DNA from: Patescibacteria group bacterium
GTDB taxonomy: Bacteria > Patescibacteriota > Patescibacteriia > Veblenbacterales > UBA10138
DNA length: 64,000 bases
NCBI GenBank assembly: GCA_041645215.1
Contig: JBAZQK010000005.1
Coordinates: 23,562 to 87,561, forward strand
Direction of reading: 5' to 3'
Within the stretch, counting starts at the first letter, position 1, and each line of letters starts with the position of its first letter. The notes under the pieces were generated by a model, which worked only from the letters and a program-made list of their open reading frames with translations, made no database searches and was not told the DNA's origin. This document shows, piece by piece, positions 50,526-53,687 of the stretch. Position numbers and translations under genes: made by a program.

Positions 50526-50639
50526 ATTTCCCTATATGTTTCCGCAGTAAAGGGTTGTCGCAGGACAACCCTTATTAATTGATTGCATGCATTTGACATA
50601 TTTTTTGTATTGTATTAGGATATAGAAAAATAGTTCTTT

Positions 50640-50970
50640 GTAAGAAATCTAAAAATCAGTGACCAGGAATAGTAGGCTATTTAAGTCTAGCCGAGAGAGG
50701 GGAGAATAGTGTGAACTCCCTCTAGACCAATAGTTCGAATGGCCCTGCGAGATGTAAGCCGAAATTGGCTGACTTTAGCCAAAAGTAGTCTTTACCGGGA
50801 TTTACCCGCCGTAACCATGGGTTAGAACGTGTTGCCCCAAGCAAAGCGTTCTGAAAGCGTTCTCCGCCTCGGCGGAGAGAATAAAGGTGGTACCGCGAAG
50901 GTTGATATGACCTCCGTCCTTTAAACAGCATAGCTTGACTATGTTGTTTGAGGGATGGGGGTTTTTTGTT
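50640..50970 (+). promoter_or_regulatory. Candidate T-box riboswitch leader (tRNA-sensing antitermination element)
   Basis: T-box signature AAAGGTGGTACCGCG at 50882-50896; terminator-like hairpin aaacagcatag..ctatgttgttt plus T-run at 50920-50966; Stem I-like distal region with CTAG..GAGAGA..AGTGTGA..CTAG at 50686-50724; TTGACA at 50593; GC hairpin 50553-50577 upstream. Confidence 0.5.
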
Positions 50971-51037
50971 TAGCTCTTTAACAACTATATAGAATGTAAA
51001 AACAAATTATAAAAATAAAATAATAAGAGGTGTAGTT

Positions 51038-53593
51038 ATGCAAGCAAAAACATTTGAAGTATTAACTGTGTCTTTAGACCAATGTTTAATTGAGGGCCCT
51101 AGTCGTGTTGGCATTAAGGCTTGGCGTCTAGCGCAGTTAGACAGTTATGGTTATAAGGTTCCACCAGCCTTGATTATCCCGGCTGATGAGGTTGTTCGTA
51201 TTTGGAAAGATGGGCAGCTTATAATATCTGACGAAATCGTAAGTGATTTGTGGCATTACAGTTGTAAAAGATTAGAGGCAGGTAGTTTAATTGTTCGTAG
51301 TAGTGGACAAGAGGACGGTGAAAAATTATCTTTCGCTGGGCAGTTTAAATCTATAACTGATGTAAATTCAGTGGAGGAATTTAAGGAAGCTCTGCGTAGT
51401 TGTATAGCTTCTTCAGAGTCTGGTTCAATACAGAATTATAGTAAGGTTATGAATGGCAAAAATTACAGCGAGGGATATTCAGTAATGATAATGCCCCAAA
51501 GAGATTGTGTTTTTTCAGGGATTTTATTTTCGGAGGTGCATGTCAATGGCAACGAATCTGATCTTATCGTTTTGCAAGTTACACATGGTAATAACTTTGG
51601 TTTAACTTCAGGTTCAGAGTCTGGAGATATTCTGTATATTGACAAGTTAGATGGTTCAATAATATGCAGTATACCGCAAAAAAGAAAAGTTGCCGGATTT
51701 GATTCCGTAACCGTTGAGAGACTGTATAATATGGCGTTGGCTCTTGAAACTAAGTTTGGTTTTTCAGTTGATTTAGAGTGGGGGGTAATGCTTGATGGAA
51801 CCATTGAACTTTTTCAAGTGCGGCCAATTACTACCCTTAATAGCCCAGATTCATCCAATGTTCGTTTAAGGAGCATAATACAGACAGATTCCTTAATGAA
51901 AGCATCTTTGCTTAGTTTAAAAGACAGGCATATATCATTGGATGTTAATTACTGGAGTGACCAGAATATCGCTGAATTGATTACAGACCAACCTTCACGT
52001 ATGGCATTTGGTATATTTACTTACATATTTGCTCACGGTGACGGTGCAATTAAAATTGGCCGTAATCAAATGGGGTATGATATAGGCGATGAATTGACAG
52101 ACGGTTTTTTTGAGCTTATAGGTGGCCGACCGCGTTGTAGTATCATACACGACGCTCTAACCTATAGGGTGAAAGGAATACCACTGGACGATTATGTTAG
52201 TGGATTTATATCTCGTTATTTAGATAAAATTAAAAATAACGTACAATACGCTAACTATCCAGAGGTGGTGTTATATGAACAAAATCCAGCGCAAGATTCG
52301 CTTATTGAAATGTTTGGTAGTGAAAAGGGAGAGCAGTATGCTAAATATTACCAAAATTTTTTCGATAGAGTTAATCAGCTTGAGAAAACAGTGGTAGAGG
52401 AATTTAAATTATCTTTTGAACCAAGTTTTATTAAGTATATTGAAGGTAAAAGAGATGATATCGCCGGATTAGACTCTTCAGATTTGGGAGAGCTAGTGAA
52501 CTATGCGCAATCAATACTGGATCATTTGAGAACAGTAAGTTGTGTAATGTTTGTAAAGATAGCAAGGCTAGGATTCTTTGCTTATGCCCGTTTACGGGAG
52601 CTACTCAATGGCGAATTTGGGGAAAACAAAGGCAGACATCTTCTCGATCAAATGACCGCCGGACTGGAAGACGACTCATCAATGTTATTTAACGTTAGAC
52701 TTGCCCAGTTAAGAGATGAAATTGTCGACATCGAGTCGGTACTGTTAGAATTCGGACATTTGGGACCAAACGAATTGGAGATAGCCAATCCTAGATATCA
52801 TAATCAAGTTGATATACTTAAGAAATTATCTCAAAGGATTCAAGGAAATCCAGCTAACGAATTACATAATCGTGCGGTCGAGGCCGATAAGGTAACTAAT
52901 GAGGTCGCAAGCTCGTTGGATGAGTCTTTGGCCGCTAAACTGCGCAAGGATGTTAAAATTGCTAGACGTTATCTTGCTCTTCGCGAACGTGCTAAATATT
53001 ACTTTCTCATGGAATATGATTGTTTGCGTCAGGCATTGGAAAAAATTTCTTCAGAACTAAAATTGGAGCATAGGTTAATATTCGAACTGGATCCGCGTGA
53101 GTTGTCTCTCTTGGTTAGTGATATTCCCCTGGCATTATTGCTGATGAGAAAGCGCTACCAAGAAAGGGATATCCTGGCTAATATTCATATACCTCCAGTG
53201 ATAACACTTAATAACTTGGGAGACATCGGCCAAGATTCTTATGATCCTACTGAGAAAATCATGATGGGTATAGGTATTACGCCAATAGTAACGACCGGTG
53301 AAGCCATAGTTGTTTTAGATCCTAACGATACGGAAGGCCTATCAAGATTAAAGCCAGGTATGGTGCTTGTTGCCAAGACTACCGACCCTACTTGGGCACC
53401 GATTATTGCTGCTGTAGGCGGTAATGGTGCTTTGGTGACTGAAATAGGCGGACCGTTGGCTCATGGGGCAATAGTGGCACGTGATCTCGGTATAGCTTGT
53501 GTACAAAATGTTCCCATGGTAACCAAAAGAATACAAAATGGAAATATTGTTAAAGTTGATGGTAAAAATGGAATAGTTACAGTTTTATCTTAA
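51038..53593 (+). CDS. PEP-utilising dikinase-like enzyme with rifampin-phosphotransferase-like domain order (N-terminal ATP-grasp/PPDK_N, C-terminal swivel phosphohistidine domain)
   Basis: N-terminal RVGIKAWRLAQL (PPDK_N VGGK-like); C-terminal PEP-utilising mobile domain GEAIVVLDPNDTEGL...GGPLAHGAIVARDLGIACV; no TIM-barrel PEP-binding domain. Confidence 0.7.
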   Translation: MQAKTFEVLTVSLDQCLIEGPSRVGIKAWRLAQLDSYGYKVPPALIIPADEVVRIWKDGQLIISDEIVSDLWHYSCKRLEAGSLIVRSSGQEDGEKLSFAGQFKSITDVNSVEEFKEALRSCIASSESGSIQNYSKVMNGKNYSEGYSVMIMPQRDCVFSGILFSEVHVNGNESDLIVLQVTHGNNFGLTSGSESGDILYIDKLDGSIICSIPQKRKVAGFDSVTVERLYNMALALETKFGFSVDLEWGVMLDGTIELFQVRPITTLNSPDSSNVRLRSIIQTDSLMKASLLSLKDRHISLDVNYWSDQNIAELITDQPSRMAFGIFTYIFAHGDGAIKIGRNQMGYDIGDELTDGFFELIGGRPRCSIIHDALTYRVKGIPLDDYVSGFISRYLDKIKNNVQYANYPEVVLYEQNPAQDSLIEMFGSEKGEQYAKYYQNFFDRVNQLEKTVVEEFKLSFEPSFIKYIEGKRDDIAGLDSSDLGELVNYAQSILDHLRTVSCVMFVKIARLGFFAYARLRELLNGEFGENKGRHLLDQMTAGLEDDSSMLFNVRLAQLRDEIVDIESVLLEFGHLGPNELEIANPRYHNQVDILKKLSQRIQGNPANELHNRAVEADKVTNEVASSLDESLAAKLRKDVKIARRYLALRERAKYYFLMEYDCLRQALEKISSELKLEHRLIFELDPRELSLLVSDIPLALLLMRKRYQERDILANIHIPPVITLNNLGDIGQDSYDPTEKIMMGIGITPIVTTGEAIVVLDPNDTEGLSRLKPGMVLVAKTTDPTWAPIIAAVGGNGALVTEIGGPLAHGAIVARDLGIACVQNVPMVTKRIQNGNIVKVDGKNGIVTVLS

Positions 53594-53687
53594 AAACTAA
53601 AATAATCTTGTAAAGGGAGTCTATTTATGGACTCCCTATTTTTATTTTCAATTATTTGTTAATATTACTTTATAATTAAAGTAGTTT

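Follow-up and report, generated by a model that had tools for sequence, protein, structure and literature searches.

In a 64-kb stretch of DNA (hereafter the window) from a metagenome-assembled genome (MAG) of an ultra-small groundwater bacterium of the Patescibacteria (candidate phyla radiation, CPR), we identified a T-box riboswitch, predicted to respond to tryptophan (Trp), in the leader of a gene for an 851-aa small-molecule dikinase, which is followed by a gene for a phosphatase. It is highly probable that this T-box and the dikinase−phosphatase pair are part of a Trp-starvation regulon, within which the pair would most likely phosphorylate a precursor or a co-substrate for Trp salvage. 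Members of CPR are thought to rely on hosts for their amino-acid supply, and both salvage itself and its regulation are poorly understood. For comparison with the window we used contigs carrying dikinase, TrpB2 or related genes, labelled L001−L098. The context analysis was based on clustered open reading frames (ORFs) of 42 loci, to which Pfam-annotated contigs were added.

A local scan with the Rfam covariance model RF00230 matched the leader (50650−50924) over the full length of the model (positions 1−219 of 219) with a score of 91.3 bits and E-value = 1.3e−20. Because this falls 1.7 bits short of the curated gathering cut-off of 93 bits, the scan of the whole window at the gathering level missed the T-box and returned only two tRNAs. 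A score under the threshold is what the earlier note on this DNA had named as refuting a T-box. We nevertheless do not regard it as a refutation, since the E-value is extremely low, every structural module can be aligned, and leaders of orthologous dikinase genes reach about 100 bits (100.3 in L003 and 99.8 in L007). The aligned modules are the K-turn, the specifier loop with its AGUA/GAA S-turn, the AG bulge, the distal loop, Stem II, Stem IIA/B with the F-box, Stem III and the T-box core (Table 1). With a match this far above chance, the leader is a real T-box riboswitch. The earlier note, made from the letters alone, had proposed a T-box on the basis of the exact signature AAAGGTGGTACCGCG, a preceding TTGACA box and a distal module resembling that of Stem I. 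All of these hold up: the signature is there (50883−50897), the TTGACA box is followed after 17 nt by TAGGAT (50593−50621), and the AG-rich bulge and the distal loop align to their counterparts in RF00230. The strong terminator hairpin with its T6 run (50910−50962) is also present, although it lies ~13−17 nt after the core and not ~30 nt as had been stated.

The predicted folding of the leader agrees with the proposed switch, in that the antiterminator sequesters the 5′ strand of the terminator and its bulge fits the tRNA 3′ end. The 3′ strand of the antiterminator (50910−50921) lies wholly within the 5′ strand of the terminator, and hence the two folds are mutually exclusive. The same competition is seen in 15 other leaders. 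A weak antiterminator (about −11 kcal/mol) opposed by a terminator of −36.7 kcal/mol is the pattern expected of a tRNA-dependent switch. All leaders checked carry platforms composed of a terminator and a U-run, and because each ends in such a hairpin, the CPR leaders are considered transcriptional.

According to the rule used by the T-box database TBDB, the specifier is made up of nucleotides 2−4 of the specifier loop, counted from its 3′ end (PMC7778990). This rule, applied to the aligned specifier loop of the window leader, gives the codon UGG, that is, tryptophan. UGG occupies the specifier position in every orthologous leader. This holds for both Stem I architectures encountered, in each of which the helices covary. 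The specifier loop reads GAA-UGG-A in L002, L003 and both leaders of L087, GAAAA-UGG-A in L007 and GAA-UGG-G in L091 and L041, while ten to twelve more leaders feature U-UGG-G in the second, compact form of Stem I. At the variable position of the T-box, all leaders have either U or C, and nine out of ten linked tRNA-Trp(CCA) genes of related genomes have G73; U or C opposite G73 fits tRNA-Trp. In addition, the compact Trp leader was found upstream of trpB2-trpS in three independent CPR contigs, so that the Trp assignment is independently validated on classical Trp genes. We predict from these data that the T-box is specific for tryptophan and not for proline. A glycine specifier (GGC, in a frame shifted by one base) was also considered and rejected: tRNA-Gly has U73 and needs UGGA, but only UGGU and UGGC occur, and the orthologs have UGG-A or UGG-G instead of GGC. 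One of the two tRNA-Trp copies in L041 apparently has U73 instead of G73.

As for the suggestion of the earlier note to look at orthologous dikinases, these do carry T-box leaders: in 20 distinct loci the dikinase unit has a Trp T-box in front of it, at 35−58% protein identity of the dikinases. The gene neighborhood points in the same direction. A gene for tryptophanyl-tRNA synthetase (TrpRS), trpS (TIGR00233; 290 bits, cut-off 177), is present at no fewer than 13 dikinase loci, and tRNA-Trp(CCA) at no fewer than nine, one of which has a tandem pair. In L012, a TrpB2-type enzyme (PRK12391, 738 bits) is encoded after the T-box and ahead of the dikinase; in L023, an EamA gene takes this place. 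In L087, trpC-trpB-trpA stands immediately upstream of the dikinase, with one Trp T-box ahead of trpCBA and another ahead of the dikinase. No trpD, trpF, trpE or trpG was found in 22 kb of L087, raising the question of where the TrpC substrate comes from. In L096−L098, TrpB2 (8001−9296) is preceded by a compact Trp T-box and followed by trpS. Because the same type of Trp T-box precedes trpB2-trpS and trpCBA, the dikinase appears to belong together with them to the Trp-starvation regulon of CPR. Other frequent neighbors are a pyridoxal phosphate-dependent decarboxylase, M20 or AstE/AspA deacylases and GNAT acetyltransferases.

Some further features of these neighborhoods may be mentioned. A fusion of type II chorismate mutase with an S-adenosylmethionine-dependent methyltransferase (~414 aa) repeatedly adjoins trpS and the dikinase. 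In L018 and L094, two loci in which no T-box could be detected, the tRNA-Trp gene is flanked directly by trpS and the dikinase gene. L094 encodes, after the dikinase−phosphatase pair, a Trp-repressor-family protein (PF01371, 69 bits; 8531−8812) and an EamA transporter (8853−9776); this repressor may represent a protein-based alternative to the riboswitch. TrpB2 is widespread in Patescibacteria, at 74−96% identity. A 225-aa protein encoded beside TrpB2 in L097 was considered as a possible phosphatase partner, but it does not belong to that family.

The domain order of the 851-aa protein is, as had been noted, that of rifampin phosphotransferases (RPH): Pfam finds PPDK_N (ATP-grasp) followed by the C-terminal PEP-utilizers swivel domain. 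The latter hosts T801-E-I-G-G-P-L-A-H809 with the catalytic His, and the T801-x-x-G-G-x-x-x-H809 motif is invariant in the alignment. The only full-length structural neighbors of the AlphaFold model (pLDDT 87) are structures of Listeria rifampin phosphotransferase (RPH-Lm; E-value = 2e−30, ~17% identity). Structures of phosphoenolpyruvate (PEP) synthase, pyruvate phosphate dikinase (PPDK) and HpeI match only at the ATP-grasp or swivel modules. The NCBIfam RPH equivalogs (NF041857/NF000283) have cut-offs of 999 and 1700 bits, of which the protein reaches only 121 and 78 bits, respectively, and no other named equivalog in NCBIfam matches it. Since the PEP/pyruvate-binding TIM barrel (PF02896 in Pfam) is missing, the dikinase is no PEP synthase. 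Given this absence, the failure of the RPH equivalogs and the lack of any other equivalog, it is best regarded, judging from sequence, as a divergent branch, restricted to CPR, within the family of small-molecule dikinases, neither RPH nor PEP synthase. Its relatives come essentially all from CPR (Kerfeldbacteria, Buchananbacteria, Sungbacteria, Parcubacteria and Pacebacteria), and it is indeed an unusual T-box target.

One contig, L001 (JBBAAT010000109.1), is near-identical to the window around the dikinase, yet it is deposited as a "Bacteroidales bacterium" MAG. It is probably mis-binned, because every other relative is from Patescibacteria. In some loci the dikinase is split (L005, 1−2250; L041, 1010−3610; proteins P0014−P0019), the ATP-grasp ORF being followed by a 582-aa ORF with the substrate and swivel domains. 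There is also a distant subfamily (L029−L034, L040; ~30% identity), which has neither a T-box nor the partner phosphatase and is preceded by three genes of the Peptidase_U32 family and one of the NMT1/THI5-like type. This setting probably indicates a different pathway. The distant dikinases of L029−L034 were left out of functional inference.

A phosphatase family of ~225 aa adjoins the dikinase downstream in 26 loci, and the catalytic set R12-H13-G, R77, E107 and H175 is kept in at least 25 of the 26 partner sequences. The structural model of the partner (pLDDT 94) has histidine phosphatases as its neighbors. Many partner orthologs match PF00300; the window copy has no Pfam match. Both sequence and model suggest that the 230-aa protein of the window belongs to branch 1 of the histidine phosphatase superfamily. 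It is 100% identical to a protein of a MAG deposited as "Patescibacteria group bacterium". Where the histidine phosphatase is missing, a low-molecular-weight phosphatase (LMWPc) comes next (L007/L083, L018 and L089), and the homolog P0067 is a fusion of LMWPc with the dikinase. A phosphatase would thus seem to be a near-obligate partner of the dikinase. The order dikinase−phosphatase−NUDIX hydrolase recurs in L092.

These observations suggest the following scenario. Transcription would start at the TTGACA/TAGGAT promoter, and the UGG codon in Stem I (50740−50742) would meet the CCA anticodon of tRNA-Trp. Uncharged tRNA would pair through its G73-C-C-A end with UGGU (50888−50891) and hold the antiterminator, and RNA polymerase would read into the dikinase gene. 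With charged tRNA-Trp, the stronger terminator (50910−50962 plus U6) would form instead. The ATP-grasp domain of the dikinase is expected to phosphorylate His809, and the swivel domain to deliver this phosphate to the substrate, bound by the helical domain in the center. Paired with its dedicated phosphatase, which has the histidine-phosphatase fold here and is of the low-molecular-weight type in some relatives, the dikinase would phosphorylate a hydroxyl-bearing precursor or co-substrate for Trp salvage of the tryptophan-synthase type. In the same route, the phosphatase would later remove the phosphate or recycle excess product. Such chemistry has precedents: via phospho-His, RPH-type dikinases transfer phosphate to the hydroxyls of rifamycins, phenols and related aromatics, they can be scavenging enzymes, and in the Hpe pathway a dephosphorylation step later follows the dikinase (PMC12167813).

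As to the function in particular, we tentatively suggest that the dikinase−phosphatase pair is an unrecognized step of Trp acquisition in CPR, induced by uncharged tRNA-Trp, which makes or traps a substrate for an enzyme of the tryptophan-synthase type. One candidate, put forward with considerable reserve, is a scavenged indolic or aromatic precursor, or else a dephosphorylated intermediate, for example indole-3-glycerol or carboxyphenylamino-deoxyribulose 5-phosphate lacking its phosphate (dephospho-CdRP), possibly derived from the host. We consider it because of the chemistry of the family, the preference of low-molecular-weight phosphatases for aryl phosphates, and the presence in L087 of trpCBA with no trpD/F/E/G nearby. 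The dikinase might also be a non-canonical serine kinase converting L-serine to O-phosphoserine for TrpB2, which we regard as unlikely. This idea stems from L012, where trpB2, the dikinase and the phosphatase form an operon, and from how abundant TrpB2 is in CPR; TrpB2 is said, in work by Busch et al. from 2014 in Biochemistry, to prefer O-phospho-L-serine.

A number of observations weigh against the interpretation as a whole or its parts. Apart from the RF00230 score of the window leader, which stays below the gathering threshold, the base after the specifier is C50743 in the window, while a purine is usual at this position and all orthologs have A or G. No tRNA-Trp, trpS, trpB or trpB2 gene, nor any other gene of the Trp islands, was found in the 64-kb window, and because it holds no tRNA-Trp, the matching of the T-box to its tRNA rests on related genomes. 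No T-box was detected in eight loci with orthologous dikinases, and no dikinase within 8 kb of TrpB2 in L096−L098. A terminator-like hairpin follows the window dikinase, so that its co-transcription with the phosphatase is not assured. The role assigned to the dikinase relies on guilt by association, and fold searches with the dikinase and phosphatase models confirmed the folds and gave no clue to the substrate. Finally, the O-phosphoserine idea fits TrpB2 of L012 but poorly fits the canonical TrpBA of L087, and a phosphoserine-phosphatase-like partner would counteract a serine kinase.

Other explanations have to be considered as well. The earlier note had proposed a proline-specific T-box, with CCA within ctagACCAAtag as the specifier, which would tie the dikinase to proBCA. 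In its favor, UGGU in the bulge would pair with A73, typical of bacterial tRNA-Pro, and in the window proBCA follows 1.3 kb after the dikinase gene, while in L087 it lies upstream of the trp−dikinase cluster. However, the alignment puts ACCAA (50726−50730) outside the specifier loop, in an internal loop that belongs to distal Stem I and flanks the distal helix at its 3′ side, and it is not conserved in the orthologs (GGCCGC in L002, ACCUCC in L003). Moreover, half of the orthologous leaders have UGGC, which is unable to pair with A73. Because of its position in the alignment, its lack of conservation and the UGGC variants, CCA was rejected as the specifier. The proBCA genes do lie downstream in the same orientation, but the implied link to the T-box does not stand. 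There are three terminator-like hairpins, after the dikinase, phosphatase and NUDIX genes, and proB has its own promoter-like site. Furthermore, L087 is the only other locus in which proBCA adjoins the dikinase, there on the upstream side, and it is absent from ~40 other loci. Control of proBCA by the T-box was rejected on these grounds. The T-box is predicted to govern the dikinase directly, and proBCA, because of its promoter-like site and the three preceding hairpins, to form a separate transcription unit. Overall, the proline reading can hardly be upheld. Very improbable, too, is that the dikinase is a divergent PEP synthase or PPDK which supplies PEP for aromatics or regenerates ATP from the AMP of aminoacylation. 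The source annotations ("PEP-utilizing enzyme", "pyruvate, water dikinase") and the ATP-grasp and swivel domains in common with PEP synthase and PPDK would agree with it, yet the TIM barrel (PF02896) is missing and all PEP synthase models score far under their cut-offs.

Two further explanations accept tryptophan as the signal and assign a different job to the enzyme. An inhibitor of TrpRS would be expected to raise the level of uncharged tRNA-Trp and hence to induce the gene. Consequently, the dikinase might detoxify a TrpRS-blocking antibiotic (indolmycin- or chuangxinmycin-like), or else rifamycins, the T-box sensing TrpRS inhibition. The nearest solved structures are indeed those of rifampin phosphotransferases, and rph-like genes have been tallied as resistance genes in CPR genomes (PMC8651080). 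We nevertheless find detoxification improbable: the RPH equivalog gives 121 bits instead of 999, structural identity is ~17%, and an obligate partner phosphatase would reverse the inactivation. In addition, the regulatory signal and the neighborhood are common to the biosynthetic trpCBA and trpB2, and the dikinase is conserved over many CPR lineages in a housekeeping-like manner. Alternatively, the pair could act on TrpRS or tRNA-Trp itself, tuning charging when tRNA-Trp is uncharged. The pair is strikingly near trpS and tRNA-Trp genes, NUDIX and HIT genes are found nearby, and both types of partner phosphatases, low-molecular-weight protein tyrosine phosphatases (LMW-PTP) and histidine phosphatases, include protein phosphatases. 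On the other hand, every RPH-type dikinase characterized so far has a small molecule as its substrate (PMC12167813), the large helical domain in the center is a homolog of one that binds small molecules, and the co-regulated trpB2 and trpCBA are metabolic. Action on TrpRS or tRNA-Trp is decidedly improbable on these grounds, and a role of the dikinase−phosphatase pair in Trp salvage is preferred.

Table 1. Coordinates of the features discussed, in the window unless a locus label is given
Feature	Position	Strand	Remarks
Promoter-like site TTGACA-17 nt-TAGGAT	50593−50621	+	10/12 consensus matches; putative, from consensus only
T-box leader (Stem I, Stem II, IIA/B with F-box, Stem III, antiterminator)	50650−50924	+	RF00230
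Stem I	50660−50751	+	RF00230 alignment read against the sequence
Stem I K-turn	UGA 50660−50662 with GAG 50749−50751	+	
Stem I helix	CAGG 50664−50667 with CCUG 50744−50747	+	
Stem I S-turn	AAUAGUA 50668−50674 and GAA 50737−50739	+	
AG bulge; distal loop	~50693−50699; ~50705−50716	+	aligned to the same RF00230 elements
ctagACCAAtag	50722−50733	+	contains the CCA proposed earlier
CCA "specifier" proposed earlier	50727−50729	+	internal loop of distal Stem I, not the specifier
Specifier triplet UGG (Trp)	50740−50742	+	RF00230 alignment; specifier-loop 3′ side GAA-UGG-C, 50737−50743
T-box core AAAGGUGGUACCGCG	50883−50897	+	7-nt bulge UGGUACC at 50888−50894
UGGU, predicted partner of the tRNA 3′ end (G73-C-C-A)	50888−50891	+	
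Antiterminator helix	50884−50921	+	50884−50887 with 50918−50921, 50895−50902 with 50910−50917; minimum free energy of the region −10.9 kcal/mol
Intrinsic terminator	50910−50967	+	24-bp hairpin (50910−50962) + U6; −36.7 kcal/mol
Small-molecule dikinase, 851 aa	51038−53593	+	ATP-grasp, helical substrate and phosphohistidine swivel domains
Terminator-like hairpin + T-run	53614−53637	+	directly 3′ of the dikinase gene
Histidine-phosphatase-superfamily protein (predicted), 230 aa	53688−54380	+	R12-H13-G, R77, E107, H175
NUDIX hydrolase, 138 aa	54432−54848	+	membership of the unit uncertain
proB, proC, proA	54940−58131	+	1.3 kb downstream of the dikinase
Two tRNA-Ser genes, anticodons GCU and UGA	21439−21530, 22004−22091	−	Rfam gathering level; ~500 nt apart
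GC-rich structured stretch	50365−50505		minimum free energy −47.7 kcal/mol, z = −2.9; between the Hsp70-like gene and the T-box promoter
T-boxes of L087	L087 6243−6513, 9677−9931		first before an 85-aa ORF + trpC-trpB-trpA, second before dikinase-phosphatase-GNAT-M20-BtpA-HAD
Compact T-box class	L004, L006, L009, L010, L016, L017, L019, L023, L025, L028, L092, L095, L096−L098		e.g. L009 3008−3043
Chorismate-mutase-methyltransferase fusions	L006 1677−2972, L009 1307−2551, L085 8022−9266, L091 12096−13229		
tRNA-Trp(CCA) genes	L007 7188−7264, L009 2746−2820, L012 183−259, L018 3480−3551, L024 8636−8711		
tRNA-Trp(CCA) genes	L041 6593−6783, L087 17057−17132, L092 6065−6138, L094 4608−4680		two copies in L041

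The compact T-boxes deserve a separate description. Their Stem I is composed of the K-turn and one continuous hairpin with a single 5-nt bulge, UUGGG, on the 3′ side, and both helices covary. The AG bulge and the distal platform are lost, whereas Stem II, Stem IIA/B and the terminator are kept. The T-box of L041 (about 700−892) is shorter still, with GAA-UGG-G in a small hairpin, and that of L091 is intermediate, having an AGUA/GAA specifier loop on a plain hairpin. In L006 (~3470−3700) and L009 (~3290−3480), ~250 nt separate the T-box terminator from the start codon of the dikinase, and the spacer contains a long hairpin, ACUCACAAACUGU...ACAGUUUGAGGUUU, conserved between both loci. L010 has a separate T-box (528−763, 112.3 bits) with the specifier loop GAA-CGA-G ahead of a gene for a 156-aa GNAT acetyltransferase (972−1442). 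The CGA specifier possibly stands for Arg, and the acetyltransferase would be another non-classical T-box target in CPR. Within the window itself, the GC-rich stretch upstream of the T-box promoter is unique, the surrounding intergenic region being AT-rich; it has no match in Rfam, both strands having been scanned.

The RNA described here is a member of the known T-box family, and the role of the dikinase appears to be undescribed so far. We found no open-access literature linking T-boxes to Patescibacteria/CPR or to this enzyme family. Our results indicate that T-box riboswitches operate in CPR, one form being compact and transcriptional with Stem I reduced to a minimum, and define a Trp-starvation regulon consisting of trpB2-trpS, trpCBA and the dikinase−phosphatase pair. 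Members of the wider dikinase family otherwise take part in antibiotic inactivation and aromatic catabolism, and the T-box places the CPR dikinase in a concrete physiological context, that of tryptophan supply. In databases it is named "PEP synthase" or a rifampin-resistance gene, and a resistome survey counts rph-like CPR genes as rifampin-resistance genes (PMC8651080). Control by a Trp T-box would make this reading doubtful for the present subfamily, and the result may serve as a warning about over-annotation of resistomes. Identification of the substrate could uncover a novel path to tryptophan, and with it another purpose to which the swivelling phospho-histidine mechanism is put.

Among known systems, the closest to the window leader are the Trp T-boxes of Firmicutes (trpS, trp operon and rtpA-ycbK leaders), which have the same set of elements, the UGG specifier, the UGGN core and a competing antiterminator and terminator. 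As in Firmicutes, Trp T-boxes in CPR also control classical Trp genes (trpB2-trpS and trpCBA). The differences are that the host belongs to CPR, that the target is a dikinase and not a synthetase, a biosynthetic enzyme or a transporter, that the window has C after the specifier, and that many CPR orthologs have a much shorter Stem I. T-boxes with an ultrashort Stem I were reportedly described in Actinobacteria (ileS) by Sherwood et al. in 2015, followed by structures of M. tuberculosis ileS T-boxes in 2019; see also PMC11297988. The compact class of CPR resembles them in lacking the AG bulge and the distal platform and in keeping Stem II and the IIA/B pseudoknot region. However, the actinobacterial ultrashort T-boxes regulate translation, whereas the compact ones of CPR are transcriptional, with the specifier in the 5-nt 3′ bulge UUGGG.

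On the enzyme side, RPH (PDB 5HV1, 5FBS; NF041857) and the CPR dikinase have the same order of three domains and the T/SxxGGxxxH motif. They differ in that identity is ~17%, and in that the CPR dikinase has Trp T-box control and an obligate partner phosphatase; rifamycin binding finds no support in its sequence or fold. HpeHI, CreHI, PpsAB and PigC/RedH belong to the same wider family and phosphorylate hydroxyls via phospho-His, the similarity being at the family level only. The two-component forms of HpeHI, CreHI and PpsAB are paralleled by the split dikinases of L005 and L041. By contrast, all these enzymes act in catabolism or pigment synthesis, with no tie to amino-acid supply or riboswitches. 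TrpB2 (PRK12391/TIGR01415) is a different enzyme, which in CPR has the same type of Trp T-box and in L012 is co-transcribed with the dikinase; a functional link between the two, for example through O-phosphoserine supply, is hypothetical.

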